From Candidatus Omnitrophota bacterium (GTDB taxonomy: Bacteria; Omnitrophota; Gorgyraeia; Duberdicusellales; 4484-171), in the NCBI GenBank assembly GCA_014729775.1, contig WJJJ01000007.1, forward strand, positions 30,302 through 94,301: a stretch of 64,000 nt of DNA. The letters are read 5' to 3'. The notes below the pieces were generated by a model. The model was not told where the DNA came from. It searched no databases and saw only the letters and a program-made list of their open reading frames with translations. Made by a program: the position numbers and the translations under genes. This document shows positions 4,812 to 53,572 of the stretch, piece by piece (within the stretch, counting starts at the first letter, position 1; each line of letters opens with the position of its first letter).

Positions 4812-7647
<2,836 letters not shown>

Positions 7648-11967: not shown

Positions 11968-12471
11968 ATGATGGAGCAGGAAAAAAAGAAAATTCGGTTC
12001 TCCGAGGTCAAACTGTTGGTCCTGGATTTCGACGGGGTGCTTACCGATAATAATGTCTATGTATCCGAGGACGGAAAAGAATCGGTGTGTTGTTCCCGGA
12101 GCGACGGTCTGGGAATAGAAATGGTGCAGAGCCGCGGGATACCCGTGGTGGTTTTATCCAAGGAAAAGAACAAGGTCGTAAAGGCCCGGTGCCGGAAGTT
12201 ACGCGTCCGGGTCACACAGGGGATCGACGAAAAACTCAGTGAACTAAAGCGAATTGCCGCGAACGCGAATGTTTCTCCCCGGCAAGTTTGTTATTTGGGT
12301 AACGACGTTAATGACCTGGAATGCGTAGAGTTTGCGGGGGCTGGCTGTGCGGTAAATGACGCCCATCCCGCGTTGCGCAATGCGGCCGATTATGTGACCA
12401 GGAACACCGGCGGGCACGGGGCTGTCAGAGAGATTTGTGAGTGTATCCTTGAAAGAGCAGATGAGCGGTAA
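11968..12471 (+). CDS. HAD-superfamily subfamily IIIA phosphatase (KdsC / Kdn-9-phosphate phosphatase family)
   Basis: VKLLVLDFDGVLTDNNVY...LGNDVNDLECVEFAGAGCAVNDA is the YrbI/KdsC family signature. The RBS gaggcggg precedes ATG 11968; the tracker began at GTG 11947. Confidence 0.8.
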   Translation: MMEQEKKKIRFSEVKLLVLDFDGVLTDNNVYVSEDGKESVCCSRSDGLGIEMVQSRGIPVVVLSKEKNKVVKARCRKLRVRVTQGIDEKLSELKRIAANANVSPRQVCYLGNDVNDLECVEFAGAGCAVNDAHPALRNAADYVTRNTGGHGAVREICECILERADER

Positions 12472-17975: not shown

Positions 17976-19370
17976 ATGCGTTTTCAGATAGAGAATATCG
18001 GAATTACTCCGCGGCCGACGTTGGCTTTTTTCCTCGTCCACATTGGGTTGGGATTGATGTTTGTTCTTGGGGGGCTGCCTGCTGCCGCCGCTGTCCATTC
18101 CCTTATTGTCCTTTTGCTGGGAGTTATGTGTGCCCTAAAAGGACGGGATGTGTGGGTTGCCTGTATCATAAGCTATATTATGGGTGCGGAGGTGCTTTGG
18201 CGGATGGGGGGCGGGGGGATCGTCTGGGAAATGGCAAAATACGGCGTGACGCTTATTTTGACGATCGCTCTCCTGATTAAGCCTTCCCGCATTCGATCGC
18301 CGGCCGCGCTCGTGACATATTTTCTCTTGTTACTGCCCGCGATTCTCGATGCTCCGGCGGAGTCATTTACCCAATGGAAAGAAGCGGTGAGCTTTAACCT
18401 TTCCGGTCCATTGTCGCTGCTGCTGTGCGGAATATTCTTTTCAAAAATGGAGTTTGAAACAGACGATCTCAAACGGTTTTTTTCATGGTTCCTGGCACCG
18501 GTCGCCGGGGTTGCTGCGGTTTCGGCCTTCTCTCTTACGCAGGCGGAAAATATTCAGTGGGGAAGAGCTTCGGTATACGCGGCCAGTGCGGGATTTGGAC
18601 CGAACCAGGTATCCAGTGTGTTGGGGACCGGCGCGTTTTTTTGTGTGATTGCCTATGTACTGTATACCCGGAAGCCGTTGATTAAAACGATTTTATTGGT
18701 ATCCGGAATATGGTTCATTACCCAGGCCTTCTTGACGTTTTCGAGGGGAGGGGTTATTCAGTCCATCCTGGCGGTCGGCCTGTTTTTTGTTTATTTAATA
18801 CGGGCCCGGGGCGGACGCTATTTTATTCCGATCACGATGTTAGCAGTTTCCCTGGTGTGTTTTGGGATATATTACCTGATCCCAAAATTGGATGAATTCA
18901 CTCAAGGGGGGCTTACGCAACGATACCAGGAACGTGAACAGGTCGGCGGCGTGGAATTACTTGATACTACCGGACGGTGGGAACTCGTCCAGGCCGATTT
19001 GCAGATTTTCCTTACGCATCCAATGGGGAGCGGGGTCGGGCGCTTGCGCTCGCTGCATAAAAAGATCCTGGGAACTCGTAAAGCGGCGCATACCGAATGG
19101 ACCAGGATGCTGGCCGAGCACGGCTGGCCTGGATTACTGGCGATTATCGCGCTCGCGGTGTGGGCATGGAAGCAGTATCGGGCAACCCGGGATCCGTTTT
19201 TGAAAGCCGTTAAAGCGTCATTCTTCTTCTCTGCGGCGGTGTTTATGGGGCATGCGGCGATGCGCCTGGTCCTTCCCGGTGTGCTCATTGGATTTCTAGG
19301 CGGGTGCAGGCGCGCGGAGGACGGTGTGCATGCTGAAAGAATATCGGAAGGGAGAACCCGCCGTTTATGA
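17976..19370 (+). CDS. O-antigen ligase / polymerase (Wzy_C) family integral membrane protein
   Basis: About 10-12 TM segments with a large periplasmic loop carrying the Wzy_C-type motif (LTFSRGGVIQS...HPMGSGVG). A strong RBS (aggagg) is present. Confidence 0.75.
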   Translation: MRFQIENIGITPRPTLAFFLVHIGLGLMFVLGGLPAAAAVHSLIVLLLGVMCALKGRDVWVACIISYIMGAEVLWRMGGGGIVWEMAKYGVTLILTIALLIKPSRIRSPAALVTYFLLLLPAILDAPAESFTQWKEAVSFNLSGPLSLLLCGIFFSKMEFETDDLKRFFSWFLAPVAGVAAVSAFSLTQAENIQWGRASVYAASAGFGPNQVSSVLGTGAFFCVIAYVLYTRKPLIKTILLVSGIWFITQAFLTFSRGGVIQSILAVGLFFVYLIRARGGRYFIPITMLAVSLVCFGIYYLIPKLDEFTQGGLTQRYQEREQVGGVELLDTTGRWELVQADLQIFLTHPMGSGVGRLRSLHKKILGTRKAAHTEWTRMLAEHGWPGLLAIIALAVWAWKQYRATRDPFLKAVKASFFFSAAVFMGHAAMRLVLPGVLIGFLGGCRRAEDGVHAERISEGRTRRL

Positions 19371-20359: not shown

Positions 20360-21408
20360 ATCAGCCGTTTGTATCGGTGGTGATGCCTTGTGCAAATGAA
20401 ATAGATTTTATTTCTAAGTCTCTCGGTTCGCTGTTGCGGACCGAGTATCCGATGCACCGGTTGGAAATATTAGTTGTGCTCGACAGCTACAGCGACGACG
20501 GGACAAGAGCCGTGGTAAAGCAGCTGCACGAAGTTCATTCGCAAATACGACTGGTTGAAAATCCGTATCGGATTGTTCCTGTTGCGATGAACATCGGGAT
20601 TCGTGCGGCAAAAGGAGAAATTATCGTGCGGGTCGATGCTCATACTGAGTATCCGCCGGAGTATATTTGTAAATGCGTGGAATATCTTGAGAAGACCGAT
20701 GCCTGGTGTGTGGGCGGGCCGTTTTATAACGTTCCCGCCACGAATACATTGATGGCCAAGGTGATCTCCGCGGTGCTCTCTTGTCCGTTCCTTGTCGCCG
20801 ACGCCCGGTTCCGGACGAAGCAGAAACCGATGTATGTGGAGACGGTTCCCTACGGCGCATTTCGTAGGGAAGTGTTTGATCGTGTAGGATTTTACGACGA
20901 GCGCCTGACCCGGCATCAGGATTTTGAATTATGCCGCAGGATTTCACGGGCCGGAGGTAAGATTTTTCTTACACCGGAAATAAAAAATTATTATTATCCC
21001 CGCAAGACCCTCCGCGCGTTTCTGCGTATGGCGGTCCAAAACGGGTATTGGGATGCGGTGAGCACCGGGTTGTGTCCCCACTCCTTTGCCTGGCGGCACT
21101 TTGTGCCCGGGCCGTTTTTTTTGGGAACGGTTGCGGGAATCGGATGTGTGGTGATTGGCGCAGCCACCGGGGACCCGGTGTGGTTCCTCGGCGCGGCACC
21201 GGTAGCTCTTTACTTCGGGTTGGCGTGCTTTTTTTCCGCTTCTCTTTGCAGAATGCATCGATTCGGCGTTGCGGCGTTTTCCCTGATCCCGTTCGTGTGT
21301 TTTCTCTTTCATTTTTGGTTTGGTTTCGGACTGATCAAAGGGCTGGCGCAGTGGCTTTGTATCCGATGGCCGCGGGAACGCAGTGAAAGGGGAACGAATA
21401 CAGATTGA
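20356..21408 (+). CDS. Family 2 glycosyltransferase with C-terminal transmembrane anchor (possibly polyprenyl-phosphate sugar transferase, GtrB/DPM1-like)
   Basis: GT2 N-terminus (FVSVVMPCANEIDFI...VVLDSYSDDGT...RVDAHTEYP) followed by 3-4 C-terminal TM helices. ATGA overlap. Confidence 0.75.
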   Translation: MNQPFVSVVMPCANEIDFISKSLGSLLRTEYPMHRLEILVVLDSYSDDGTRAVVKQLHEVHSQIRLVENPYRIVPVAMNIGIRAAKGEIIVRVDAHTEYPPEYICKCVEYLEKTDAWCVGGPFYNVPATNTLMAKVISAVLSCPFLVADARFRTKQKPMYVETVPYGAFRREVFDRVGFYDERLTRHQDFELCRRISRAGGKIFLTPEIKNYYYPRKTLRAFLRMAVQNGYWDAVSTGLCPHSFAWRHFVPGPFFLGTVAGIGCVVIGAATGDPVWFLGAAPVALYFGLACFFSASLCRMHRFGVAAFSLIPFVCFLFHFWFGFGLIKGLAQWLCIRWPRERSERGTNTD

Positions 21409-22031
21409 TGAGTGATGTGCAGAGAGAATATCGTCTCAAGCGACCGGTTGATTTTTTTCTGGGGGTCCTCGCAGTTTTTCTCTCTCTGCCCCTATGGGGG
21501 TTGTGTGCCTACGCGGTGCTGGCGGAGGACGGCCGCCCGGTATTTTACGGACAATATCGGATTGGGCGAGCCGGGCGAAGGTTTCGGGTATTTAAATTCC
21601 GGTCGATGATCAAAAATGCCGAAGCGCTGACCGGGCCTGTATTCGCTCAGGAGAATGATTCCCGGTTGACCAAGACCGGCCAGGTCATGCGGGCGACCGC
21701 GCTGGATGAACTTCCGCAAATATTGAGTATTCTCAAAGGAGATATGAGTTTTGTCGGACCTCGGCCGGAGCGTCCCGAATTCGTGGCGACGTTTGCGGCC
21801 GAAGTGAGAAATTATATGATGCGGCATGCCGTCCGTCCCGGGTTAACGGGAGTTGCTCAGATTTTCGGGCAATACGATACCCCACCGCGGCATAAACTCC
21901 GTTATGATCTGTTCTACATAAGGAGGCAGAGTTTACTGTTCGATTTGGTTCTCATTACTATTTCTTTGTATCTGAGCATATGCGGAAAATGGAGGTTTCG
22001 CCGGCGAAAGTTTCCTCGGCGGTATCGATAA
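21408..22031 (+). CDS. Polyprenyl-phosphate sugar phosphotransferase (small bacterial sugar transferase, PglC/WbaP-C-like)
   Basis: One N-terminal TM then FKFRSM...DELPQILSILKGDMSFVGPRPERPEFV, the Bac_transf signature of initiating phosphoglycosyltransferases. Confidence 0.85.
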   Translation: MSDVQREYRLKRPVDFFLGVLAVFLSLPLWGLCAYAVLAEDGRPVFYGQYRIGRAGRRFRVFKFRSMIKNAEALTGPVFAQENDSRLTKTGQVMRATALDELPQILSILKGDMSFVGPRPERPEFVATFAAEVRNYMMRHAVRPGLTGVAQIFGQYDTPPRHKLRYDLFYIRRQSLLFDLVLITISLYLSICGKWRFRRRKFPRRYR

Positions 22032-22088
22032 AAGGTGTTGCGTTGTTTCATCTCTCCCCGTAGAATAATATCGGGGGGAGAAAGGGTT

Positions 22089-23219
22089 ATGAAAGAAATG
22101 TCAATTGTCATCGTCGGTGCCGGTCCGATCGGGTGCTATGTGGGGCAGCTTTTGACCCGGCAGGGATACCGTGTCCGAATTATTGAGGAGCACAATGAGA
22201 TCGGGAAACCGGTGCATTGTGCGGGATTAATCGGGAAAAAGGTGCTGGATGAGATGCGAATCCCTTTCCCCAGGGAGAGCGTACTCAACCGTATTGACGG
22301 GGGGATTGTGCATCTCAATGGGGATTGTTTCCGTCTCCGGCGAGAAGAAGTTGCCTATGTGATCGACCGGGAAAAATTCGATAAAGCTATGGGGGCGGGA
22401 TTGAATGTGACCTATGGAACCCGGTGTGTCGGGATTGAGGAGAACGGAAGAGGGTATATTCTTGAAACTGACAGAGGAGAAATAAAAGCGGACGCGATCA
22501 TCGGTGCTGACGGCGCGCATTCTGCGGTCCGGGAATACGTGCATCAGAAAACCCCGGTCGAATATCTGAAAGGGGTACAGTTCCGGATGGAGCAGGCTCC
22601 TTCTGATATCAATATGGTGGAGATCTTTCTCAAAAAGCCTTATTTCTTCTGGAGCATCCCTGAAAATGAGAAAATCGTCCGGGTCGGGGTTCTTTCCCGG
22701 AATCCGTACTATGATCTTCTCGATTTTATCAAGGAAAGAGGTTTTCAGGGACGGGTGATCGAGAAATTCGCGGGACTTGTGCCCTTTTCGCATTTTTCCA
22801 CGTTTTCCAAAGGAAACGTATTTTTGGTGGGGGACAGCGCCGCACAAATAAAACCGTTGTCTTACGGCGGTGTCTATCTGGGGATGCGCGCTGCGGAACT
22901 TCTCGCGGATTGCCTGTGCAGTGAAAGGCATCAAGAATATTCTTCCCTGTGGAAGCGCCGTTTCGGCAGGGAACTCGCGATTACACTGAAGGCCCGCCGT
23001 TATTTTCATACGCTGAGCGAAGAAGATTTAGAACGAATATTTTTCTTCGTGAAAGATAATACTTCTCTTATAGAGGAAAAAGCCGATTTTGAAAATCACG
23101 CGGTGATGGTTTGGGAGTTCTTAAAACGGCCGAACGTATCAAAAGAAATATTGAGCATATTGCTGAAACTCGTGAAAAACAATTTTTTTCAGAATGAAGT
23201 CAATTACGCTACAAAGTAG
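22089..23219 (+). CDS. Geranylgeranyl reductase family FAD-dependent oxidoreductase
   Basis: MSIVIVGAGPIGCYVGQ...IIEEHNEIGKPVHCAGLIG is the GGR-type dinucleotide-binding fold with the PxCGG-like motif. ATG at 22089 (the tracker began upstream). Confidence 0.8.
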   Translation: MKEMSIVIVGAGPIGCYVGQLLTRQGYRVRIIEEHNEIGKPVHCAGLIGKKVLDEMRIPFPRESVLNRIDGGIVHLNGDCFRLRREEVAYVIDREKFDKAMGAGLNVTYGTRCVGIEENGRGYILETDRGEIKADAIIGADGAHSAVREYVHQKTPVEYLKGVQFRMEQAPSDINMVEIFLKKPYFFWSIPENEKIVRVGVLSRNPYYDLLDFIKERGFQGRVIEKFAGLVPFSHFSTFSKGNVFLVGDSAAQIKPLSYGGVYLGMRAAELLADCLCSERHQEYSSLWKRRFGRELAITLKARRYFHTLSEEDLERIFFFVKDNTSLIEEKADFENHAVMVWEFLKRPNVSKEILSILLKLVKNNFFQNEVNYATK

Positions 23220-24498
23220 AATTATTATTCTCTTTGTGATTTTTACCATTTTCACGATCGGCATTTTCGTCGTGATTCAGCTGTCGCATGAGTTGAATTC
23301 GGTTAACCAGGAGATTGAGTACCGGGCCCGCGCGAATTCAAATGAAGTAGAGGAGGAATTCCGGGAGATTCTTCTCCGGTTCCCGGACCGCGCGGAGGCG
23401 ATCGAAGTGATGGGTGAAAAACTCCAGGCGCTGAAAACCTCCGGGTTTCTCGAGCGTGCCTATGTGCTTGATTCTTCGGGTGAAATTGTATTCTCTACCG
23501 AGGGCTGGTTTGGAGGACAAAAGGGGAGTTTTACCGATTTTAATATACTGCAAAAATTTTTCGCGGAGGATTCGAGACGGAGAGAGGCTGTTACCGATAA
23601 AAAGAGCCGGTTACTCTCGGTGTATATCCCTCTTGACCAGGAAGATGAGTTGCGTTATTTGGTGCGGTTGTTTTTCCCTCTGGGCGATATTTGGACGGCG
23701 ATGCGGCAGGTCTATCAGCCGGCGTTTGCGGTCGGGCTGTTGTTTATCGTATTGAATGTATTGTTCGGGATATCTCTTTCCCGGGCGATTATCGGTCCGA
23801 TTAAGGTGGTAAGCGAGGCGGCAAAAAAAATCGCCGCGGGAAATCTTGATTTACGCGTACGAATGTCCACGAACGACGAGCTGGAGGAGTTGGCCAATAC
23901 GTTTAATGTGATGACAGTTGAATTAGACAAGATGAAACGACAAGCTGAGGATGCCAATCCTCTGACAAAACTTCCAGGGAACGTATTGATTCGCGAAGAG
24001 ATCGAGATGCGAATTCAAAACAAGGAAAAATTCGCGGTCGTATATTGCGACTTGGATAATTTCAAAGCGTTCAATGACAAATACGGAATCGGTAAAGGAG
24101 ATGAGGCAATCAAGCTTACCGGGGAGATTTTCAAACGGGCCGTAGAGCACAAAGGGGAATCAGATGATTTTATCGGACATGAAGGCGGGGACGATTTTTT
24201 ATTGGTATGCCGGCTTTCCCGGGTGGAAGAGGTGGCCAATTACATAATTGAAGAATTCGATGTGCGCATACGGGATTTATACGACAAAGAAGACAAAGCG
24301 CAGGGCTATATTATCGCAACGGGACGGGACGGGGTAAAGCGGCAGTTTTCCATTATGACCATTTCTCTGGCGGGAATTACGAACGGCCGCCGGGAGCTGC
24401 ACAGCTACGGTGAAATCACCAATATTGCGGCCGAAGTGAAAAAGAAAGCAAAAAACCAGGAGCGCAGCTGTTTGGTGTTTGACGAACGGACCGGGTAG
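23194..24498 (+). CDS. Membrane-bound HAMP-GGDEF domain protein (diguanylate-cyclase family; signature motif is GGDDF)
   Basis: Two TM segments flank a ~150-aa periplasmic region, then HAMP (IGPIKVVSEAAKKIAAGNLDLRV). The GGDEF domain has LTKLPGN, YCDLDNFKAFND, and GGDDF at 24184-24198 in place of GG(D/E)EF. Confidence 0.8.
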   Translation: MKSITLQSRIIILFVIFTIFTIGIFVVIQLSHELNSVNQEIEYRARANSNEVEEEFREILLRFPDRAEAIEVMGEKLQALKTSGFLERAYVLDSSGEIVFSTEGWFGGQKGSFTDFNILQKFFAEDSRRREAVTDKKSRLLSVYIPLDQEDELRYLVRLFFPLGDIWTAMRQVYQPAFAVGLLFIVLNVLFGISLSRAIIGPIKVVSEAAKKIAAGNLDLRVRMSTNDELEELANTFNVMTVELDKMKRQAEDANPLTKLPGNVLIREEIEMRIQNKEKFAVVYCDLDNFKAFNDKYGIGKGDEAIKLTGEIFKRAVEHKGESDDFIGHEGGDDFLLVCRLSRVEEVANYIIEEFDVRIRDLYDKEDKAQGYIIATGRDGVKRQFSIMTISLAGITNGRRELHSYGEITNIAAEVKKKAKNQERSCLVFDERTG

Positions 24499-24508
24499 TG
24501 TATTAGTA

Positions 24509-24835
24509 TTAGGAGAGGTTATCTAAGAGACTTTCCGTAAGATCTTTATACGGGTTCAAATACGGATGCGGCTCGTCTAATGCGAAATCCGGGATGTTTT
24601 CCTTTTCCTGGATACGAGGCGCGGGGTTGATAATGTTGGAAATAATTTGTTTCCATTTAGGGATGTCCGTCGGGGGCTGGGGATCGTTGCGGTCTGCATG
24701 GTAATCGGGCGAAGCGCTGTTGTCTTCGGGCCACTCCACCTGCGATGGTTCGGGTTGGGCGAGCGCCCAGAAACCACCGGTTCCCAATAACAGAACTACC
24801 GCACATATGAAAATCATATCTTTGTGTATGCTCAT
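24509..24835 (-). CDS. Small secreted hypothetical protein (108 aa, Pro/Asp-rich)
   Basis: This is the only convincing minus-strand gene. The Met at 24835 gives MSIHKDMIFICAVVLLLGTGGFWALA|QP, a typical Sec signal peptide. It lies in the 425-nt gap between convergent and divergent + strand genes. Confidence 0.4.
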   Translation of the reverse strand: MSIHKDMIFICAVVLLLGTGGFWALAQPEPSQVEWPEDNSASPDYHADRNDPQPPTDIPKWKQIISNIINPAPRIQEKENIPDFALDEPHPYLNPYKDLTESLLDNLS

Positions 24836-24922
24836 CTCAATTAAAGGATACCATACCCTGCCCCCCGATGTCAATAAAATCGCCGATGGCGAAAAACCAT
24901 TGAAAATAAAGGAGAATACGTT

Positions 24923-26761
24923 ATGATGCGCCGAGTTTTCCAGCGCTCCGTGCTTACTCTGATCGTGGTTGTGGTGACAATGGGGACGTTTCTTTTTATT
25001 TATAATACCTATATGTTGGATCATTCTCTCTTTAATCTGAAGGTTTCGCTCAAACATCTGGCTACCGTGGAAAATCCCAGGGAAATGGAGGAAATCCGGC
25101 AAATCCTGGACGTTGTATTGGTCCAGGAAATTGCCCGGGATTCGTCCGACTTTTTAGCGGCGGCAAAACTGGAATTTTCCGGTCAGATTGCGGGGCGGAT
25201 GAAGCAATATCAGCAGATTCAGGATATCCGGTTTCTCTTGGGGGATATCGTGGAACAACGGGAGGAGCGACGCAATCCTTTTTTTGCTCTGCTGGACAGC
25301 ATTTTGATGAAACTCTTCCCCCATGTGCGGCAGGACCAGCCGCAGAAGATACGCGCAATGATCAGCGAAATGGAAAAGAAAATTCCCCTTTACGACGGAA
25401 TTAAGCTGCAGGCGCATTTAATCCGTCTGGCACAGATGAATATGCGTCTTCGGGAGTGGCCTGTCGCATTGGAGTTGTTGCAGCGGGCGGCTTCAGCCGG
25501 GCCGGAAAGTAAGGAGGGCCGTATCGCGAAGCTATATGTGGGAATCGTATATAAATTTACCGGAGAGTATGAGCGTGCCCGGAAAGTATTCAGCGAGCTT
25601 CGTTCGGTGTTAGAGAAAGATCTGAAAAAATACGCAATATATCAGGAAGCCCAAATCTTGTATGCAGAAGGGCGAAAGGGACAGGCCTTGCAGAAGTTAG
25701 AAGAGTTCTTTGATGATTCGCCCGGAGAAGAATTCCATCAATTCTCGCAGTTCCGGGCGGCATACGAGTATCTATACACCATACACGACCACCAGAAGGC
25801 GTATCAGTCGTTTCAAAAACTGCATGAATATGCACCCCAAAGCAAGTATGACGAATATGCGGTTACCTATCTCTATCCCCGGAATGCGGAGCCGTATGTA
25901 GAAGAAGGAGCAATTTTGTTGGATGAAGGGTATAATCTGGTGCGGTTGGCACATGAAAAAGAGGCACGCGAACGATATCAGGGTGCATTGAACCTGTTCC
26001 ACCAGGCGGTAAAAATTTGTCCGCCGGAAACCAATGATACCGTGGTGTCGATTATCGCCCGCAATTATCGGGAAACCGGATTCAAACTGGTCGAACAAGG
26101 ATATTTGTCTCAACAGGCGAACCAGAAAGCGGAAGCGACGTTGTTTTTTTCCGATGCGATCGAGAAATTTGATCTTGCAACGCAATTCTTCGACCGCGAA
26201 GCGTTAGCATACAGCGGGAAAGGACTGACGTTATTGTTTCTCGGGAAGCCGCAGGAAGCGCTGGATGCCGCGCGGGAAGCCGTCCGTCTCAATCCCGAGA
26301 ATGAAGAAACACTGGCTCATTTGGGGTATGTGTATTATCGGGTGGGAATGCTTGACGAAGCGATCGATGTGTATCGAAAATCGATGTTGGTATTACGAGA
26401 TTCTCCGCTATTGCATTATAATCTGGGGACAATGTTGGTTAAAAAAGGCAACCTTGTGGGAGCGATCGAAAATTTCAAACAGGCGATTGATGCTGATCCG
26501 AAATATTCGTACGCATATAATAACCTAGGATACATTTTGTGGGTAAAGGGCGCCTATCAGGAGGCGCAGACAAATTTGGAGCGAGCCGTGAGTTTGAGCC
26601 CCGATTATGTGGATGCCAGGTATAATCTCGGAGTCTTGTTTTTTACCATCGGAAAGTACGAACAGGCCCAGGAGCAGTTCCAAGTGATCAACCGTTTGCA
26701 TCCGGGGTTCAAAAAAAGCCAACAGTTTCTGAGAGCGATTGAAAAGAGAGCTGCACAATAA
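24923..26761 (+). CDS. TPR-repeat protein with N-terminal membrane anchor
   Basis: RBS aaggag 7 nt before ATG. An N-terminal TM (LTLIVVVVTMGTFLFIY) is followed by multiple TPR-like repeats (YNLGTMLVKKGNLVGAIENFKQAIDADPKYSYAYNNLGYI...). Confidence 0.8.
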   Translation: MMRRVFQRSVLTLIVVVVTMGTFLFIYNTYMLDHSLFNLKVSLKHLATVENPREMEEIRQILDVVLVQEIARDSSDFLAAAKLEFSGQIAGRMKQYQQIQDIRFLLGDIVEQREERRNPFFALLDSILMKLFPHVRQDQPQKIRAMISEMEKKIPLYDGIKLQAHLIRLAQMNMRLREWPVALELLQRAASAGPESKEGRIAKLYVGIVYKFTGEYERARKVFSELRSVLEKDLKKYAIYQEAQILYAEGRKGQALQKLEEFFDDSPGEEFHQFSQFRAAYEYLYTIHDHQKAYQSFQKLHEYAPQSKYDEYAVTYLYPRNAEPYVEEGAILLDEGYNLVRLAHEKEARERYQGALNLFHQAVKICPPETNDTVVSIIARNYRETGFKLVEQGYLSQQANQKAEATLFFSDAIEKFDLATQFFDREALAYSGKGLTLLFLGKPQEALDAAREAVRLNPENEETLAHLGYVYYRVGMLDEAIDVYRKSMLVLRDSPLLHYNLGTMLVKKGNLVGAIENFKQAIDADPKYSYAYNNLGYILWVKGAYQEAQTNLERAVSLSPDYVDARYNLGVLFFTIGKYEQAQEQFQVINRLHPGFKKSQQFLRAIEKRAAQ

Positions 26762-26762: not shown

Positions 26763-26791
26763 TTGACAGCAGCATGAAAATATACTAAACT
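26763..26791 (+). promoter_or_regulatory. Putative sigma70-type promoter (TTGACA-17-TAAACT) giving a near-leaderless PilZ mRNA
   Basis: TTGACA at 26763-26768 and TAAACT at 26786-26791 with a 17-nt spacer. The predicted TSS is ~3-4 nt before ATG 26802. Confidence 0.45.
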
Positions 26792-26801
26792 TATCGTTGA
26801 G

Positions 26802-27377
26802 ATGCTGAAATCATTCAAGAAACATTTCTTCCGCAAGAAAGGCCGTGACCGGAGAAAATATGTCCGGTTGCGTGCGCATCATTTGCTGAAGTATAAAATT
26901 CTTTCTCCCCAAGAACATCTGACCTTTGTCCGCGATATCAGCGGCGGCGGACTCCTCTTTTTCTCGAGAGAGGATATTCCTGTGGGGAGTGTAGTGGAAC
27001 TTGCCGTTAATTTTCCCGCATCTCCCTTGCCGATTGAAGGGGTAGCCAAGGTGATCCGGACCCGGCATCTTAAAAAGATGGGCGGCTACGAGATCGCAGT
27101 CGAATTTCTCGAGCTGGACGAAGAAAACCGGGAACGGATTCAACGGCAAATAGCGTGTGTATATGAAAAAAAAGAACAAAGAAAGGGGGAGCGAATGGGC
27201 AGAGTAGCGAAAATATTCCTGGGACTCGCGATTGTCGGCGCGCTTTTCGGGACGGCAACGCGATTCTTTGATGTGAGTGTCCCGGTTGCCCCGCTCAGTT
27301 GGGTTATGTTGACCAATATGTTTTTGCTGTTCTCTATCGCGGTCACTTTGTTGGCAATTGCTCGGAAGATCAAATAG
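26802..27377 (+). CDS. PilZ-domain c-di-GMP receptor with C-terminal two-TM anchor
   Basis: Canonical PilZ motifs RKYVRLR (RxxxR) and DISGGG (DxSxGG), followed by two hydrophobic helices at the C-terminus. Confidence 0.8.
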   Translation: MLKSFKKHFFRKKGRDRRKYVRLRAHHLLKYKILSPQEHLTFVRDISGGGLLFFSREDIPVGSVVELAVNFPASPLPIEGVAKVIRTRHLKKMGGYEIAVEFLELDEENRERIQRQIACVYEKKEQRKGERMGRVAKIFLGLAIVGALFGTATRFFDVSVPVAPLSWVMLTNMFLLFSIAVTLLAIARKIK

Positions 27378-27418: not shown

Positions 27419-28747
27419 ATGGGCAGGTGGATTACCACAGGAATATGCATGGTTGCGTGTGCTGTCCTTCCCGCAGCGGGATGGGGGGAAGTGACGAGGG
27501 GAGACCTTATCGACGGATATCTTAAATATTATCAGCTGGAAGAAAAAGAACGGGAAGAAAAGGAACGGCAGGAAGAGCTCCGGCGGCAAAAGGAAGAGGC
27601 TTTGATGCGGGAGCGGGAAGCCCGGCGGGATAAAAGCGAGCAACGTGCGAGAAAAATGAAAAAAGTGCTTGAGAGAGTAAAAGAGGATCTTTTGTTTGTC
27701 GCGGAACTCGAGAGTATTTATAGCGATAACGTATTTAAAACCAGCGAAGACGAAGAATCAGATTTCGTCACTTCTCTCACCCTGGGATTGAGCTACGAAC
27801 CAGAAATTGCATGGAGGAAGGGGCATACTTCGGTAAAATTCGATCTGGAAGGCGGTCCGAACATCACCATTACGGATAATGACGAGCTGAACGCGAACCG
27901 GTTCCTTGCCGCCGGTGCGGTCCAGCATGTCCGGGGGAAATACGGTGTCGGTATTGAAGGAGGCGCGGAACGGGATTTCTCTACGGCGAGCGATTTTACC
28001 CTTACGGGAGAAAAAAAGCTCGTGGAATTCTGGCGGTATCGGTACGGAGTGGAGCTGTTCGCCGACTGGGCATATCTCCCTTCCTCGCTTCAGTACACGC
28101 ACAAAACAACCGAACACGACGGAGAGTTTTCTGCGGCGGATTTAGACGAGGACGTCATTGAATTGACGACGAAAGTGAACGTTTTCCCCAAGACCGGAAT
28201 TAAATTTGACTATCAATATGGTTCTGACGAATATCCGAACCGCGGAAATAAAGACGGTACGTATCATTCGTTTCAACTCGGGCTGTCCGGAAAGATTTCG
28301 CCGAAGATCAAAGGGGATATCCTTGGAGGCATCAAGCAGAGAGAAATCGATGACGGCAGCGATGTCGAAGAAACTACGACGACGGTGGACCTTGTGTATG
28401 ATATCTCCGAACATCTGAGCGCCGCCTTCGAAGCAAGCCGGGATGTCTCCGCGACGGCGGTCATCGGAGAATCTTGGAGCAAAGACTGGGAGATCATTCT
28501 GGGGCTGGAATACCGGCCGCCGTTCAACCGAAGGTTAACCATGTTCGCCGGAGGGGAATATAAGAGTTCAGAGTATTCTTCCGCCCGGGAAGACGAATAT
28601 CTTGAGCTGTCTTTGCGGTCACGGCTCGCGTTGAATCAATGGCTTTCCTGTGAAGGTGCATATACGTTCGAAGACAGGACCTCGAACACTGCCCTGGCCG
28701 AATACACGCAAAACGAAATTACGCTGTCACTCACCGCGGAGTTTTAA
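27419..28747 (+). CDS. Putative outer-membrane beta-barrel protein with N-terminal charged coiled-coil region
   Basis: Signal peptide (MGRWITTGICMVACAVLPAAG), a K/E/R-rich low-complexity stretch, then alternating amphipathic beta-strand pattern. The C-terminus ...ITLSLTAEF ends in Phe, the OMP signature. Confidence 0.6.
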   Translation: MGRWITTGICMVACAVLPAAGWGEVTRGDLIDGYLKYYQLEEKEREEKERQEELRRQKEEALMREREARRDKSEQRARKMKKVLERVKEDLLFVAELESIYSDNVFKTSEDEESDFVTSLTLGLSYEPEIAWRKGHTSVKFDLEGGPNITITDNDELNANRFLAAGAVQHVRGKYGVGIEGGAERDFSTASDFTLTGEKKLVEFWRYRYGVELFADWAYLPSSLQYTHKTTEHDGEFSAADLDEDVIELTTKVNVFPKTGIKFDYQYGSDEYPNRGNKDGTYHSFQLGLSGKISPKIKGDILGGIKQREIDDGSDVEETTTTVDLVYDISEHLSAAFEASRDVSATAVIGESWSKDWEIILGLEYRPPFNRRLTMFAGGEYKSSEYSSAREDEYLELSLRSRLALNQWLSCEGAYTFEDRTSNTALAEYTQNEITLSLTAEF

Positions 28748-30088
28748 ATGAAGATGCGAACAAAAATCATAGGTGTGCTTCTCGTTTGCTTCCCGCTGGC
28801 TGTTTCCGCACAACAGGAGGAGGAGAACATTGCCGCAGGGGATATTCTCCATATTACCGTATACGGGGAGCCGGGGCTTGATCAAAAGGTCCAGGTGTCT
28901 GGTACGGGGGATGTCGAATTCGTTCCTCTCGGACAGGTTCCCGTGGCCGGGCTCTCTCCGGTCGGGGCGGGAGAGAAAATCGAACGGGAACTGAAAAATG
29001 AGTTTTATTTGGATGCGGAAGTAAGCGTGATCCGGAACCGGTCCGCCGGGGAGTCGACGCAGGAGCCTCTTCCTTATTTTTCCGGTGAGGATTCCGGAAT
29101 TCCCTCTGCGGAAGACGATTTGTTTTACCGGGTTGGTCCGTACGATACAATTGAGATATCCGTTTACGGAGAGCCGGATTTAAGTAAAACCGTCAAAGTT
29201 TCCGAGGTAGGAAATATCCGTTTTCCGCTGCTGGGAGACGTGCAAGTCGAAGGACTGACTGCTGAAGAAATCGCCAGAAAAATTGAAGAATTGCTTGAGG
29301 ACGAATATTTAGTGAATCCACAGGTGAGTGTGATGATCGAGGAATACGGAAAAGTCTATGTGTTCGGCGCGGTGAATCAGCCGGGGGAATACGAGTTAAA
29401 AGGGCCTCTTACGCTCGTTGATATCCTCGTGCTAGCCGGCGGGGCCCAAGAAAACGCCAATCTTTCAAAAGTAAAAGTGGTGCGAAGGACCGGAGGCGAC
29501 CGGGGGTACGTGGTGGACGTAGACGATGTGGGCAACCGTTTCTACCTGAAACCCTTAGATAAGGTGATTGTGGAAGAATACGGGGAGATATATATCGTTG
29601 GCGCCGTCGAGAATCCTGGAGCTTATAATCTCGAAACGAGCGACTTGACGCCGTTGGATGCAATCATATTTCTGGCCGGAGGAGCTGCGGAAAATGCGAA
29701 CCTTACCGCGGTGACCGTGATCCGGTCGGCCGAAGATGGGAAAGAAGAGATCGTCGTTGACACTTCCCGGCCCGATCAGGAGTTTTATCTTCAGGAAGGC
29801 GACCGGGTGGTGGTAACGCTGTACGAGGATGTTTCGGTGTTTGGTGAAGTGCGGGAACCGGGTAATTACCCGTACAAAAAGGGGATAACGGTGATTGATG
29901 CCATTAGCCAGGCTGGCGGATTTACCGAGGTCGCGAGTAAAAACGGCGTACGAGTTATTCGGCAGCAGGGAGGGGAAAAGAAAATTATCAAAGTGCCTGT
30001 CGGATATATTTTAAAAACCGGAGATAAAGAGAGAGACATAGAGCTCCAGGAGGGCGATGCGGTAGTCGTCCCGGAATCGTGGTTTTGA
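28748..30088 (+). CDS. wza: Polysaccharide export protein (Wza/GumB/EpsA-like; Poly_export + SLBB domains)
   Basis: Signal peptide and repeated SLBB motifs (VYVFGAVNQPGEYELKGPLTLVDILVLAGG; IYIVGAVENPGAYNL...LDAIIFLAGG). Confidence 0.85.
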   Translation: MKMRTKIIGVLLVCFPLAVSAQQEEENIAAGDILHITVYGEPGLDQKVQVSGTGDVEFVPLGQVPVAGLSPVGAGEKIERELKNEFYLDAEVSVIRNRSAGESTQEPLPYFSGEDSGIPSAEDDLFYRVGPYDTIEISVYGEPDLSKTVKVSEVGNIRFPLLGDVQVEGLTAEEIARKIEELLEDEYLVNPQVSVMIEEYGKVYVFGAVNQPGEYELKGPLTLVDILVLAGGAQENANLSKVKVVRRTGGDRGYVVDVDDVGNRFYLKPLDKVIVEEYGEIYIVGAVENPGAYNLETSDLTPLDAIIFLAGGAAENANLTAVTVIRSAEDGKEEIVVDTSRPDQEFYLQEGDRVVVTLYEDVSVFGEVREPGNYPYKKGITVIDAISQAGGFTEVASKNGVRVIRQQGGEKKIIKVPVGYILKTGDKERDIELQEGDAVVVPESWF

Positions 30089-30094: not shown

Positions 30095-31933
30095 ATGATA
30101 CCTTCACCGGAAGTTAAAGAACTGACGCTCAAGGATTACGTCGACATATTGCTGCGGCGGGTGTGGATACTTATGCTTTTTTTGGTCGTTATCCCCTCGA
30201 TCGTCGCAATCCGCGATCTGCGCATGGAGAAAGTGTATGAAGTAGAGACGAAGATCCTGTTAAAAAGCGAGATGCCGCAGATTTCCGGTAAAGAAGGGTT
30301 ATTATACCGTCAGGGAATGCCTGCGAAAGAGGACCAGGTTAATCTGCTTCAATCCCGGGCGCTTGCCGAGCGAGTGATCAAAACCTTGAATTTATCAAGC
30401 GAAGAAGAGTTTTCCGGAGCTTCCGATCCGGCGAGGTCTTTGCTTGAGAGGGTGACCGTAGAACAGGAGGACCAGCGCCGAAGCAATGTGGTATGGCTGC
30501 GGGTGGAGGGGAGTGATCCTCTGAAAATTACTAATATCGCCAATACCTGGGCCCAAGAGTTCATCGAACTGGATGTCGAACAAAGGATTTCTACGGCAAA
30601 ATACGGGGTAGCTTGGCTGAAGGAGCAGCTCGACCAAACACTCCAGAATCTTCAGGCGGCCGAAAAGAATCTCAATGCGTTTATTAAGAAAAACAAGATC
30701 GTGGCCATCCCTGACGTGGGAGAGCAGAAAGAGACTTTGATCGAACGGTTGAAAGAGCAAAAAGTTGATCTCGAAAAAGAATTGTTCGAGATGTCGAAAA
30801 AATATAAACTGAATCATCCCGATATGCTCGCCCTTCGTTCTCAGCTGGAGGCCGTCGAGAAATCTTTGGCAAAAGAAAAAAAGGCGGTGTTCGAATTGCA
30901 GGAGAAATCGCTCGAATACAGGATCCTTAAGCGGAATGTCGCTGCGCATAAATCGTTGTATGACGATTTTCTAAGGCGCATCAATGAACTTGAAGTGACC
31001 AAAGAGATGGTCAATTCGAACATCATGGTCGTTGAAGAAGCGCATATCCCTTCGGTTCCGATCAGGCCCCGGTTTGCCAGCGACATGGTCAAGGCGATTC
31101 TCATAAGTTTGGCGCTTGGCGCCGGGCTGTGCTATTTTCTCGAATACACCGATACTTCGCTCAAGACTTCGGAAGACGTCGAATTCTACACCCGGCTGCC
31201 ATTTCTCGGCTATGTACCTTCGGCAAAAAAAGGAGGGAAACGGGGAGATCCCAGTGTGCTCATCTCTTCTGCCGAGCCGTATTCTCAGGTGGCCGAAGCA
31301 TTAAGGAATCTGCGCGTATCTTTGATTTTTTCCTTTCCGGAGGATCATCCTTTGCGGTCGGTCATGGTGACGAGTGCCGTTCCCCGAGAAGGGAAAAGCT
31401 TTATCGCCGCCAATCTTGCGGTGATTTTTGCTCAGGCGAACGAAGAAACACTCTTGATCGAGACCGACATGCGCAAGGGGAAGCTTTCAAAGATATTTGA
31501 GATTGACGCAAAACACGGGCTCAGCAGTGTGTTAGCCGGACTTTGCCCCCTTGAAGATGCGGTGTCGCCTACTTCCATTCCCCATCTTTCCGTGATGCTT
31601 GCCGGGCCGTACACTCCGAATCCCGCGGAATTGTTGAGCTCGCATAAACTTGTCGAAATTATGGAAGAAGCAAAAAAGAAATATAAGCGAATCGTAGTGG
31701 ACGCGCCGCCGGTATTGGGGGTTGCCGATACGGTATTGGTCGGCGATAAATGCGACGGTGTTGTGTTCGTGGTGAAAACCGCCAGTACTTCCCTGAAGCT
31801 TGTAGAAGAGGCAAAAAAAATGATCACCGATAAAATGAAGGTGATCGGGGCGACATTGAATAATGTCGAAATGGAACGCGACCGGTATTACTACTACCAC
31901 TACTATTCTTATGCACCCGAGAAAAAAGGTTGA
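30095..31933 (+). CDS. wzc: Polysaccharide co-polymerase / BY-kinase (Wzc/EpsB-like tyrosine autokinase)
   Basis: N-terminal TM plus periplasmic coiled-coil (Wzz/GNVR-like), a second TM, a cytoplasmic P-loop ATPase (VTSAVPREGKSFIAANLA; VVDAPPVLGVADT), and the terminal Tyr cluster RDRYYYYHYYSY. Confidence 0.9.
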   Translation: MIPSPEVKELTLKDYVDILLRRVWILMLFLVVIPSIVAIRDLRMEKVYEVETKILLKSEMPQISGKEGLLYRQGMPAKEDQVNLLQSRALAERVIKTLNLSSEEEFSGASDPARSLLERVTVEQEDQRRSNVVWLRVEGSDPLKITNIANTWAQEFIELDVEQRISTAKYGVAWLKEQLDQTLQNLQAAEKNLNAFIKKNKIVAIPDVGEQKETLIERLKEQKVDLEKELFEMSKKYKLNHPDMLALRSQLEAVEKSLAKEKKAVFELQEKSLEYRILKRNVAAHKSLYDDFLRRINELEVTKEMVNSNIMVVEEAHIPSVPIRPRFASDMVKAILISLALGAGLCYFLEYTDTSLKTSEDVEFYTRLPFLGYVPSAKKGGKRGDPSVLISSAEPYSQVAEALRNLRVSLIFSFPEDHPLRSVMVTSAVPREGKSFIAANLAVIFAQANEETLLIETDMRKGKLSKIFEIDAKHGLSSVLAGLCPLEDAVSPTSIPHLSVMLAGPYTPNPAELLSSHKLVEIMEEAKKKYKRIVVDAPPVLGVADTVLVGDKCDGVVFVVKTASTSLKLVEEAKKMITDKMKVIGATLNNVEMERDRYYYYHYYSYAPEKKG

Positions 31934-33231
31934 TGAGAAGAAACGGATCAGAGATTTTCTTTGAGGGTGTGATTTGGTTCCTTATCTTTTTCCCGCCTCT
32001 TTTCTCCGGGGGGCTTCCCTTTCTGCCCAGGGTAATCCTTTTCACCGTAATTTTTAGTTTAGTCCCGCTCGTATTGTTGCGCGCCGCAGTGCGGTCTGAG
32101 TGGAGTGTTTGTTTTCCCCGAGAAATTTGGATATTGGGGGGTTTTTTTGCGGTGTTGGTGTTCCAGCTCATTCCTTTACCTGAGGGAATGCTTGGATTTT
32201 TTTCTCCGGCAACGGCGGCTATTTACCGGACCTATGCAGCCGAAGTTTCCCCGCGGGTATTCAGCATAAGCATTTATCCGTATGTGACTCTTCTTGAACT
32301 GGTGTATTGGGCCGGGTATGCGGGGCTTTTCCTGGTGGCGGTCAATTTGTTCAATACGCGCAGACGTATGATGCGTGTGGTGTACGTGATGATTCTTTGG
32401 GCGTTTGTGCTCGGAGCGTACGGAGTGATTGAAAAGTATATCCTTGGGTGGAGTGCGGGGAGATTAACGTTCAGCACATTCGGGAATAAGAATCACTTTG
32501 CCGGGTACATGGTGCTTATCTCGCCATTGGCATTTTCATTTGCATTTTACGAAAAAGATCGGGCAAAAAAATTGGTGCTTGGGTTTCTGGGCGGACTGTT
32601 ATCCCTGATGGTATTTTTATCGTTTTCCCGGGCAGGGACGATCGCGCTTCTTGGCGCACTGGGTTTTATGGGGCTGTTGGTATGGCAGCAGTCCAAAACA
32701 GCCAAAGCAGTGGGCGGGGTGGTGGCTGCGGTTTTGCTGGTCGCGGGGTTGCTGTCGCTGGCCGGTATCGATCAATTTATTCAGCGTTTTTCGTCCCTTC
32801 CTTCCGGGTTATACACCCGAACGATGCTGTTCCAGGATGCCTTAGAAATTATCGGAGACTTTCCGCTTTTCGGAACGGGTGAAGGAACTTTCCGCTATAT
32901 TTATCCGATGTATAAGGATATTATTACTACGAGGTTTACTTACCATCTTCTGAATGATCATCTGGAATTGCTCTTGGAAACGGGTCTCGCGGGTGCCTGT
33001 GCGTATTTTGGGTTTTTGAGTGCGGTATTCGTCCGAATCGTCCGGAAGCTGTCCGAACGGAAAGATCCTTTTGCGAAGTATCTCGTGATCGGCGGCCTGA
33101 GCGGAACCGCGGGGCTTCTGTTCCATAGTTTTTTTGAATTCAATTTTTTTGTGCCGGCGGTGGCCTGTATGTTTTGGCTGATTCTGGGGATTACTTATAA
33201 AGGAGTGCATACGAGGTTCGCGAGGCAATGA
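31933..33231 (+). CDS. O-antigen ligase / polymerase (Wzy_C) family integral membrane protein (second copy)
   Basis: A >=10-TM protein with the Wzy_C-like loop (LSFSRAGTIALLGALGF...LFGTGEGTF). The TGATG junction overlaps the wzc stop. Confidence 0.75.
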   Translation: MRRNGSEIFFEGVIWFLIFFPPLFSGGLPFLPRVILFTVIFSLVPLVLLRAAVRSEWSVCFPREIWILGGFFAVLVFQLIPLPEGMLGFFSPATAAIYRTYAAEVSPRVFSISIYPYVTLLELVYWAGYAGLFLVAVNLFNTRRRMMRVVYVMILWAFVLGAYGVIEKYILGWSAGRLTFSTFGNKNHFAGYMVLISPLAFSFAFYEKDRAKKLVLGFLGGLLSLMVFLSFSRAGTIALLGALGFMGLLVWQQSKTAKAVGGVVAAVLLVAGLLSLAGIDQFIQRFSSLPSGLYTRTMLFQDALEIIGDFPLFGTGEGTFRYIYPMYKDIITTRFTYHLLNDHLELLLETGLAGACAYFGFLSAVFVRIVRKLSERKDPFAKYLVIGGLSGTAGLLFHSFFEFNFFVPAVACMFWLILGITYKGVHTRFARQ

Positions 33232-34202
33232 AGTGGAACGCGCAGCATAGGTGTGGGATCTGGGCTGCAGCCGCGTTTCTGTGTGCGGTATCCGCGGTGA
33301 CTTTTCTTGTTTCCTCTTACCGTGCCGCAGCGCTGTATGCACGGATCGACCGGGCGACCGTGCCGCAATTGGAACGGGAAAGGGTGCGGTACTATGCGAA
33401 ACTGGGGCAGTTGTTCGTCAGGGCAACCACGCTTCAGCCGTTGAATGCCGACCTGTTGGCCCGGCGTGCCGATTTTATTCTCCGTGCTGGGGTTTGGCTG
33501 AATGATCAGCGGCCGGAGGCCCGGCGTCTGCTGAGACGTGCCGTGGAGGAAAATCCCACCAATTTTGTGTATCATCTTAAATTGGGGATGCTGGCCGAAG
33601 AACAGGGCCGTTATGAGGCAGCCGAACGTTTTTACCGGCAGGCGATGTCGTTACACCCAACCGATTATCAGGGGTATTTTCGTCAAAGCGTATTGGCACT
33701 TAAACAGGGACGGCAGGAGGCTGCCTTTCGCAATTTTTTTACGGCGATGTATTGCGTCGGCGGCAGGCGAAAAAAACTGTTTATGATGTTTGATGAGCTC
33801 TCTGCGGCAAATCCGGAGAGGTCACGGTTATCGTTTCGGGAGGAAATCCGCCGCCGGTGGATAGAGTACCGGGTTGTGCCGCTCAAGGTGGCATATCATT
33901 TTGGCGCACACGGGTTTCCGTCCATCCGGCACTACGAGCGACCGGACCCGCAGTATCGCTATCTTTCGTTTGATGTGGATATCCAGGCGCAGGGAAGCGA
34001 AGCTGTCCACCGGATTACTTTTGAGAATCAGGATTCATTTGAACGGGAATTCTTGAGCCGGGATGACCGCTGGTACGAAGTCCGGCTCGATGAATTCCCG
34101 GCACGAACACCATTGAGTCAAAATGCGATTAAAACGTATCCCCCCGGGCTTATCGAAGAACTCGTTTTTGAAATCCGGTTTGAATATAAACTGCTAAAGT
34201 AG
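33228..34202 (+). CDS. TPR-like repeat protein, probably exported
   Basis: ATGA overlap with the upstream Wzy-like gene. N-terminal hydrophobic segment (WAAAAFLCAVSAVTFLV) and TPR-like helical repeats (YHLKLGMLAEEQGRYEAAERFYRQAMSLHP...). Confidence 0.6.
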   Translation: MKWNAQHRCGIWAAAAFLCAVSAVTFLVSSYRAAALYARIDRATVPQLERERVRYYAKLGQLFVRATTLQPLNADLLARRADFILRAGVWLNDQRPEARRLLRRAVEENPTNFVYHLKLGMLAEEQGRYEAAERFYRQAMSLHPTDYQGYFRQSVLALKQGRQEAAFRNFFTAMYCVGGRRKKLFMMFDELSAANPERSRLSFREEIRRRWIEYRVVPLKVAYHFGAHGFPSIRHYERPDPQYRYLSFDVDIQAQGSEAVHRITFENQDSFEREFLSRDDRWYEVRLDEFPARTPLSQNAIKTYPPGLIEELVFEIRFEYKLLK

Positions 34203-46364: not shown

Positions 46365-46383
46365 CAAGAAAAGGGAGGAAAAT

Positions 46384-53411: not shown

Positions 53412-53572
53412 TTCTTTCGTGTATCCGCGCGTGCTTTTTTGAAAAAGGGTGGAGGGCTTGATTTTTTTTCAATATTTAGTAAGATAAGGTCTTTTCCCGT
53501 CCGGGAAGGCGTGTCAAGAAAGAATTTGAAAACACTGGTCATTCTTGATAGACTAATGTACGTTTATCCGGT

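Follow-up and report, generated by a model that had tools for sequence, protein, structure and literature searches.

A PilZ Protein with a C-Terminal Membrane Hairpin as a Candidate c-di-GMP Receptor of an Exopolysaccharide Export Module in Omnitrophota

This study concerns the open reading frame (ORF) at 26802..27377 on the plus strand of a 64,000-nucleotide stretch of contig WJJJ01000007.1 (assembly GCA_014729775.1, Candidatus Omnitrophota bacterium), which is called the window below. The ORF starts with ATG, lies directly 5' of an outer-membrane beta-barrel gene, and encodes a protein of 191 aa in which a PilZ domain is followed by a membrane hairpin. Our analysis suggests, with a probability of roughly 60%, that this protein is an inner-membrane receptor for cyclic di-GMP (c-di-GMP) which forms part of an Omnitrophota exopolysaccharide module, licenses polymer assembly or export, is made as two products, and is expressed from its own promoter.

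Results

The PilZ Domain and the Hairpin

An earlier note on this DNA had described a canonical PilZ domain with a two-helix membrane anchor at its C-terminus, and both parts of this description were borne out. The Pfam profile PF07238 matched aa 16-117 (26847..27152, plus strand) over model positions 1-100 of 102, with an E-value of 8.6e-13 and a score of 48.9 bits against a cut-off of 22.5. Both binding motifs are intact: RRxxxR is present as R17-R18-K-Y-V-R22 in the N-terminal segment (nt 26850-26867), and DxSxxG as D45-I-S47-G-G-G50 (nt 26934-26951). In the 17 family members compared, R18, R22, and G50 never vary, and DxSxxG is also conserved at its D/N and S residues. No other in-frame start codon able to include the RxxxR motif was found upstream of ATG 26802. 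A hypothetical protein (P0001) from a metagenome-assembled genome (MAG) of Candidatus Omnitrophica has the same sequence (100% identity).

The AlphaFold2 model, built on the 17-sequence family alignment, had a mean pLDDT of 81.6 over the whole protein and block means of mostly 87-97 across the barrel. It predicted a six-stranded barrel at aa 23-104 and the usual C-terminal PilZ helix at aa 107-127. After an interruption at 128-129, the chain continues as two long helices (130-156 and 164-190). The best Foldseek matches of the model in the PDB were c-di-GMP-bound PilZ domains, namely those of MotI, YcgR, Alg44, PA0012, MrkH, and BcsA, and the probability was 1.00 against MotI, YcgR, Alg44, and BcsA. 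By profile, motifs, and predicted fold, the protein is a member of the PilZ family of the c-di-GMP-binding type.

Concerning the anchor, hydropathy and the predicted helices agree. The hydrophobic segments at aa ~136-156 and ~164-187 reached Kyte-Doolittle 19-residue maxima of 1.85 and 2.30, are linked by a 7-residue loop, and have basic residues flanking both cytoplasmic sides. The protein stops 4 residues past the second transmembrane helix (TM2), and its predicted periplasmic loop measures ~7 residues; the model thus fits a membrane hairpin of N-in/C-in topology with almost no periplasmic exposure. The motif W..(T/V)N..LLFSIA of the hairpin is conserved among relatives. A profile search with the hairpin alone in a set of 5.8 billion proteins matched only one paralogue (P0006, described below), and no known family could be assigned.

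Conserved Position within an Export Module

A word-index search returned only four relatives of the PilZ-hairpin protein, and an exhaustive profile search returned 3124 PilZ proteins at E<=0.001, among which ~17 cluster representatives had the PilZ-plus-hairpin architecture. For comparison, ~50 loci, of which roughly 25 are distinct, were collected (L numbers below); their sources were GTDB genomes, metagenomes, and contig look-ups, and all named ones belong to Omnitrophota MAGs. When the window proteins were compared with these loci by tblastn, one order recurred on every contig that was long enough. In the window it reads, all on the plus strand: a small phosphoglycosyl transferase (PGT; Bac_transf, 21405-22031), a geranylgeranyl-reductase-family flavoprotein (22035-23219), a membrane HAMP-GGDEF-family protein (23194..24498), a tetratricopeptide-repeat (TPR) protein of 612 aa with an N-terminal membrane anchor (24923..26761) immediately upstream of PilZ, the PilZ-hairpin protein, the outer-membrane beta-barrel (27419..28747), a Wza-like OPX protein (28748..30088), a Wzc-like PCP-2a/BY-kinase (30095..31933), a Wzy_C-family membrane protein (31930-33231), and a TPR protein of 324 aa (33228-34202) that closes the block. 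Either this full order or its PilZ-to-PCP core was kept in ~25 loci, divergent members included, and the PilZ-barrel-OPX-PCP core remained in divergent lineages from which the upstream part is missing (L002, L046, L050).

In two independent lineages (P0019 and P0063), the PilZ frame runs on without a break into the signal peptide and BBP2_2 barrel of the next gene; these fusions are carried by L012 (8001-9719), L013, L050 (6001-7539), and L051, and the two lineages were found on 5 and 3 contigs from several samples. Because the synteny is conserved, the core persists in divergent lineages, and such fusions occur, PilZ is, as judged from gene order, a fixed member of the export module. The placement of the gene before a barrel, a wza-like, and a wzc-like gene, as the earlier note had it, therefore stands, and the functional link to polymer export that the note had drawn is strongly supported by the synteny in ~25 loci together with the dedicated cyclase gene in the block.

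Two further observations concern variant forms of the PilZ gene. In the L012 fusion, a TTG preceded by a weak Shine-Dalgarno (SD) sequence may be an internal start, and the L050 fusion has no obvious internal start; if the signal peptide of the fusions is cleaved after ...SYA or ...TCA, a cytoplasmic PilZ would be left anchored by the peptide. In the lineage of L002 (9536-10408; also L003-L005, L016, and L017), tandem PilZ genes of 108 and 135 aa, both without a hairpin, stand before the barrel, OPX, and PCP genes, with ATP-sulfurylase and adenosine 5'-phosphosulfate (APS) kinase genes before them and RND efflux genes after.

A Candidate Internal Ribosome-Binding Site and a Nested Hairpin Frame

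At the junction between PilZ and the hairpin, the ORF contains a candidate internal ribosome-binding site (27183..27197, plus strand), which consists of AAGGGGG at 27183-27189, a 5-nt spacer (agcga), and an in-frame ATG at 27195 (Met132). The nested frame that begins there (27195..27377, plus strand) would encode 60 aa comprising the hairpin alone, with the first transmembrane helix at nt ~27207-27269, the loop DVSVPVA, TM2 at nt ~27291-27362, and the tail RKIK. In pairing with the anti-SD sequence, only three of the 320 in-frame internal ATGs of the window genes surpass ATG 27195, for which the energy is -11.0 kcal/mol (mean of all, -3.2). Of these three, two are true gene starts that were mis-called by the longest-ORF rule, so that the junction site scores like true gene starts.

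The simplest alternative is that only the full-length protein is made, and that the purine-rich junction is a flexible Lys/Glu/Gly linker with a helix-starting Met, its likeness to an SD being accidental. The codons for Gly, Lys, and Glu are indeed purine-rich, the pattern K-[EG]-G-G-x-x-M occurs in 13 of 17 family representatives, and AlphaFold2 places its helix break at this point. However, the internal SD and in-frame ATG are kept at the junction in all 17 PilZ-hairpin loci that could be read as DNA, which represent ~15 distinct lineages whose proteins are 35-50% identical. Each of these loci has a GG(A/G)GG core beginning at -10 to -13, a spacer of ~5 nt, and ATG, and the duplexes range from -10.9 to -16.6 kcal/mol, whereas the encoded junction residues vary (KGER, KGGGV, KEDN, KEAD, KKGGGA, REGV, KGGDI, EGGEK, GGGEE, and others) and the core falls in different codon phases. 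Since the core and its distance from ATG stay constant while both residues and codon phase vary, selection appears to act on the nucleotides; further, the first codon of the encoded Gly-Gly pair is GGA or GGG in nine of nine cases.

Natural variants of three kinds also speak against a single product, one of them being the orthologues without a hairpin that are described below. L001, from the complete Omnitrophota genome CP070807.1, has a free-standing hairpin paralogue of 62 aa (P0006, 10571-10759) with a strong SD of its own, directly 3' of the fused PilZ-hairpin gene; this is the only stand-alone copy of the hairpin in any of the loci. In L029, PilZ ends with ...KGGI and a stop codon, and the same AAAGGAGG element serves as the ribosome-binding site for the TTG start of the barrel gene. 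We therefore regard production of the full-length protein alone as unlikely. The conservation of the internal SD, the variants of L001 and L029, and the retention of the fusion in frame are read most economically as two products, and the one ORF probably makes both the full-length PilZ-hairpin protein and the 60-aa hairpin, the latter by use of the putative start at 27195. Accordingly, the description of a free-standing PilZ given before is incomplete, as it misses both the internal SD and ATG, which probably yield a separate hairpin, and the conserved HAMP-GGDDF cyclase with which the receptor is paired.

The hairpin is absent from some members of the family. Within the same synteny, PilZ-only orthologues occur in L002, L009, L010, L024, L027, L028, and L031, and no extra hairpin copy was found when these loci were examined for one. 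Such orthologues, together with the PilZ::barrel fusions of two lineages, which suggest that stop codons are easily lost, would be expected if the hairpin were a functional small membrane subunit to which a soluble PilZ had been joined incidentally by stop-codon loss, with the tether having no role. This explanation is highly unlikely, as the in-frame fusion has been kept without a stop codon in every hairpin-bearing lineage (~15 distinct ones at 35-50% identity) with the frameshifted contig L036 as the sole exception. As for that contig, comparison with the close relative P0010 places the frameshift of its PilZ-hairpin gene (4834-5400) 5' of the junction, within the sequence for PilZ, and the frameshift is either a sequencing error or the mark of a pseudogene.

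A Promoter at the Head of the PilZ Gene

The sigma-70-type promoter that the earlier note had read upstream of the gene is present at 26763..26791 (plus strand), with TTGACA as the -35 box (26763-26768), a 17-nt spacer, and TAAACT as the -10 box (26786-26791). It begins 2 nt after the stop codon of the 612-aa TPR gene, and its -10 box ends 10 nt 5' of the PilZ ATG. This is the only perfect intergenic plus-strand site of the TTGACA-17 kind in the window.

From the window locus alone, the match could be due to chance. A lenient promoter scan found 12 sites in 14 kb against 13±3.7 expected in shuffled sequence, which is not above chance, and no terminator lies between the TPR and PilZ genes. In L006, L008, and L019, moreover, the TPR stop codon and the start of PilZ share bases (TAATG), leaving no space for an intergenic promoter, and many other orthologues have no recognisable -35 box. 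These points would agree with an unused promoter-like sequence, in which case PilZ and the export genes would be expressed only from transcripts that read through from TPR, translation then being SD-independent or coupled.

The comparison with orthologous loci argues otherwise. Near-identical pairs of hexamers, all <=130 nt upstream of the PilZ start, were found in L002 (TTGACA-17-TAAACT), L009 (TTGACT-17-TAAACT), L010 (TTGACA-16-TATACT), and L014 (TTGACA-16-TAAACT), and in L002 and L009 no TPR gene precedes the pair, which is truly intergenic there. Stringent matches thus occur in five of ~20 distinct lineages against 0.03 expected per 130-nt locus, a figure that reflects the density of stringent matches in all sequence collected for comparison. 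L046/47 and L048 in addition have TTGACA, 17 nt, and a TAnnnT hexamer upstream of PilZ, so that a consensus-like -35/-10 pair recurs 5' of PilZ in about one third of the distinct lineages. The window also has a TTGAAA-17-TAGACT site at 53526-53554, ~18 nt 5' of its only tRNA gene (53573-53644), and the TAnACT-style -10 box common to this site and the PilZ promoter hints at a local -10 preference of the organism. A chance origin is therefore quite improbable. Because the same kind of site recurs at orthologous loci far above chance, we conclude from these sequence comparisons that a real promoter is present, predicted to be used in the cell, and that PilZ stands first in a transcription unit which holds the export genes. 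The lack of -35 boxes and the overlaps with the TPR stop in some orthologues indicate that transcription from upstream also occurs.

The leader had been described as almost absent, and this part of the earlier note holds with a restriction. The PilZ ATG at 26802 has no SD (anti-SD duplex +0.7 kcal/mol), unlike many other genes of the window, upstream of which an SD is recognisable, and the 10-nt gap between the -10 box and ATG predicts a leader of 2-6 nt, which is compatible with leaderless-type expression. The exact geometry, with the -10 box ending 6 nt before ATG as is classic for leaderless genes, is found in only two orthologues, L010 and L014. L046 and L048 have predicted leaders of ~8-11 nt without an SD, and in L002 and L009 the leader is 64-75 nt long with an SD-like purine-rich end, where the duplex is strong in L002 (-11.9) and weaker in L009 (-5.9). 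As the leaders vary to this extent, from those with an SD to the TAATG overlap, leaderless expression is not a conserved property; as far as sequence can tell, leaderless or near-leaderless expression is one of several solutions within the PilZ family described here and not a general one.

The Partner HAMP-GGDDF Protein

The membrane protein encoded at 23194..24498 is a GGDDF variant of the GGDEF family. HEGGDDF occurs without exception in the 12 orthologues compared, and the protein thus departs from the GG(D/E)EF signature by which diguanylate cyclases (PF00990) are recognised. The RxxD I-site is absent (GESD instead), and an insertion in the second half of the domain limits the Pfam GGDEF match to model positions 5-94 of 161. 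The Asp that contacts guanine has been kept, since FNDKYGIGKGD aligns with iNDqfGHdkGD of the diguanylate cyclase 6eib.

Reports on GGDDF proteins point in both directions: the GGDDF domain of GSU1937, a Hypr protein with Ser at the selectivity position, was reported to be active as a synthase of c-di-GMP and cyclic GMP-AMP (cGAMP), and GGDDF proteins such as PA3258 were reported to be inactive (PMC8835794). A Hypr identity like that of GSU1937 was rejected for the window protein, which has Asp, not Ser, at the selectivity position.

The variant signature, the partial Pfam match, and the reported inactivity of proteins such as PA3258 would suit a module without any c-di-GMP switch, in which the GGDDF protein is dead or makes another nucleotide, and PilZ is a constitutive structural adaptor or senses an unrelated global pool. 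This is distinctly unlikely in our view, since both PilZ binding motifs are strongly conserved, the guanine-specifying Asp (GKGDEAI) is retained, a GGDDF domain is active in GSU1937, and the invariance of HEGGDDF argues for a constrained active site. A dedicated local source of c-di-GMP in the module is hence plausible from the sequence features of the protein.

Neighbouring Genes

Concerning the other genes of the block, the flavoprotein exceeded the cut-off of TIGR02032 with 170 bits. It is conserved between the PGT and the cyclase in every long locus and may modify (saturate) the polyprenyl carrier lipid of the pathway. The region between the GGDEF-family and TPR genes (24499-24922) contains a minus-strand ORF without relatives in the other loci and no conserved small gene. 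A scan of the whole window with Rfam returned the tRNA only; neither a c-di-GMP riboswitch nor any other RNA element was matched near the locus.

The barrel is BBP2_2/EpsL-like, has a signal peptide, and ends with ...LTAEF. Between its signal peptide and the barrel (aa 38-90) lies a highly charged Lys/Glu/Arg-rich stretch, QLEEKEREEKERQEELRRQKEEALMREREARRDKSEQRARKMKK, and K/E-rich stretches like it are also present in orthologues (L006). The OPX protein of 446 aa has a Poly_export domain and three SLBB domains and ends with ...VVVPESWF, without the long C-terminal helix of Wza; it scored 206 bits with TIGR03027 against a cut-off of 180. The PCP-2a/BY-kinase combines Wzz/GNVR with a Walker A motif (GKS) and a C-terminal Tyr cluster (YYYYHYYSY), and scored 158.6 bits with TIGR01007 against 108. 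An assignment to the PEP-CTERM/exosortase systems was not adopted: the OPX protein passes TIGR03027, but the barrel, PCP, and TPR proteins are far below the cut-offs of the PEP-CTERM equivalogs. Among the window ORFs scanned against Pfam, which were not all ORFs, there was no exosortase. In L050 (12188-13539), Wzy_C and TPR are fused as one protein of 776 aa, a fusion which suggests that the Wzy_C and TPR proteins work together.

Upstream of the block, window positions 1180-21408 code for an ABC exporter, a bifunctional 3'-phosphoadenosine 5'-phosphosulfate (PAPS) synthase, a GDP-mannose dehydratase and epimerase, a sulfotransferase, NeuB, a CMP-sugar cytidylyltransferase, a HAD phosphatase, a methyltransferase, many GT2/GT4 glycosyltransferases, and a second Wzy_C protein (17976-19370). 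Going by these genes, the polymer is probably sulfated and contains nonulosonic acid. Several GT2 genes lie upstream of PilZ; none of them is adjacent to it or identified as a processive synthase. No Wzx flippase recognisable by Pfam was seen in this cluster, in which a 489-aa ORF (12437-13906) has no Pfam match. Errors of the longest-ORF rule are exposed by strong SDs at two genes of the window: the NeuB gene starts at ATG 11075 (not 10997), and the gene called at 46249-46986 starts at ATG 46384.

Discussion

Proposed Mechanism

The following mechanism is proposed for the module. The PilZ domain would be held on the cytoplasmic side, tethered to the inner membrane by the C-terminal hairpin, and would bind, through RRxxxR/DxSxxG, c-di-GMP made locally by the module's own membrane cyclase. 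The hairpin would then pass the signal within the membrane to a partner in polymerisation or export; as it has no periplasmic domain, its action must take place in the membrane or on the cytoplasmic side. The best candidates for the partner would be the PCP/BY-kinase (Wzc) or Wzy_C, with the PGT as the third; in Myxococcus, a response regulator was recently found to activate the PGT (PMC12802240). Polymer assembly or export would thereby be licensed after translation, as in Alg44 and BcsA, but on a Wzy/PCP/OPX-type pathway, and such gating is suggested by the association of the genes. The ligand, the partner, and the direction of regulation are putative in this scheme, and c-di-GMP may activate or inhibit.

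PilZ and the downstream export genes would be transcribed from their own sigma-70-type promoter into an mRNA without an SD and with almost no leader. The full-length protein from ATG 26802 and the 60-aa hairpin from ATG 27195 could co-assemble, in which case hairpin-only subunits could dilute or scaffold those that bear the sensor. The more specific proposal, that the two products co-assemble as an inner-membrane regulatory subunit of a Wzy/PCP/OPX-barrel machine fed by the dedicated GGDDF cyclase, is a tentative one and somewhat doubtful as a whole.

Several points weigh against the interpretation of the protein as a c-di-GMP receptor with two products and its own promoter. All relatives of the PilZ-hairpin protein come from uncultured MAGs, and its function rests on association. 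At least three orthologous groups have no hairpin, which is thus not essential to the role of PilZ in the module, and the hairpin has no homologue of known function in the profile search, so that its partner is a guess. A Gly/Lys/Glu-rich linker could account for part of the SD-like junction. The -10 box in the window sits 10 nt, not 6-7 nt, from the PilZ ATG, and the many orthologues without a recognisable -35 box, together with those whose start overlaps the TPR stop, point to additional transcription from upstream. The departure of GGDDF from the sequence required of canonical cyclases makes the local source of c-di-GMP uncertain.

Post-translational control by c-di-GMP is well understood for the synthase-dependent polymers cellulose, alginate, and Pel. 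By comparison, post-translational control of the PGT/Wzy_C/PCP-2a/OPX-type pathway has been called incompletely understood (PMC12802240). A canonical PilZ protein which, together with its own cyclase, is hard-wired into a PCP/OPX/barrel module in many Omnitrophota lineages would be a testable candidate for such control. If the proposal of two co-assembling products is true, it would represent a PilZ-based post-translational c-di-GMP switch for Wzx/Wzy-type (non-synthase) export, in which the ratio of sensor-bearing to sensor-less subunits is set by translation. Natural variants are available for its dissection, as fused, split, hairpin-less, and barrel-fused forms exist. The conserved internal start would further be a compact case of a small membrane protein encoded inside a larger gene, of a kind that gene callers routinely miss, and the HAMP-GGDDF protein offers a second natural family in which the activity of a GGDDF variant can be tested. 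As every carrier is uncultured, the work is limited to biochemical or heterologous approaches.

Comparison with Known Systems

Among known receptors, Alg44 of Pseudomonas aeruginosa is similar in that its canonical PilZ domain is N-terminal and cytoplasmic and precedes a membrane anchor, and in that its gene lies inside a polysaccharide operon. Its PilZ structures 4rt0/4xrn ranked among the top Foldseek matches, with a target TM-score of up to 0.80 and a sequence identity of only ~18%. Alg44, however, has one transmembrane helix, a large periplasmic HlyD/MFP-like domain, and the synthase Alg8 as its partner in a synthase-dependent pathway, whereas the window protein has a hairpin with a ~7-residue loop, no periplasmic/MFP domain, and PCP/BY-kinase, OPX, Wzy_C, and small PGT proteins as its neighbours. 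With neither an MFP domain nor an adjacent synthase, the predicted protein is not an Alg44 homologue in architecture.

The PilZ domain of BcsA is likewise canonical and a structural match (4p00), and it gates polymer synthesis and translocation after translation; it differs in being located inside the synthase polypeptide, whereas here PilZ is a separate small protein with no processive synthase gene beside it. PelD, which is also a non-catalytic, inner-membrane-anchored c-di-GMP receptor in an exopolysaccharide operon, binds its ligand via the I-site of a degenerate GGDEF domain (with GAF) and has an N-terminal anchor, so that both fold and binding mode differ. Within a literature search confined to open-access text, a survey of PilZ architectures (10.1101/814665) describes no PilZ protein with a C-terminal hairpin.

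The export genes behind PilZ are of the same type as the composite OPX/beta-barrel translocons EpsY/EpsX of Myxococcus xanthus and VpsN/VpsM of Vibrio cholerae (PMC9601211). Shared features are a barrel gene coupled to an OPX protein without an outer-membrane-spanning C-terminal helix, and a PCP; in contrast, no PilZ component is described for those translocons in PMC9601211, and the window OPX has 446 aa and three SLBB domains against <=280 aa of a "short OPX". At the level of domains, the protein encoded at 23194-24498 resembles GSU1937 of Geobacter sulfurreducens, both being membrane-anchored members of the GGDEF family with GGDDF and without EAL/HD-GYP (PMC8835794), but GSU1937 has the Hypr Ser that favours cGAMP where the window protein keeps Asp.

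Parallels to the nested frame lie in proteins that involve neither a PilZ receptor nor a membrane hairpin, and the short form is a prediction in the present case. Nested in-frame internal starts give rise to CheA-L and CheA-S, to the isoforms of IF2, and to SctQ and SctQ-C, and the short C-terminal product of such a gene can assemble with the full-length protein.

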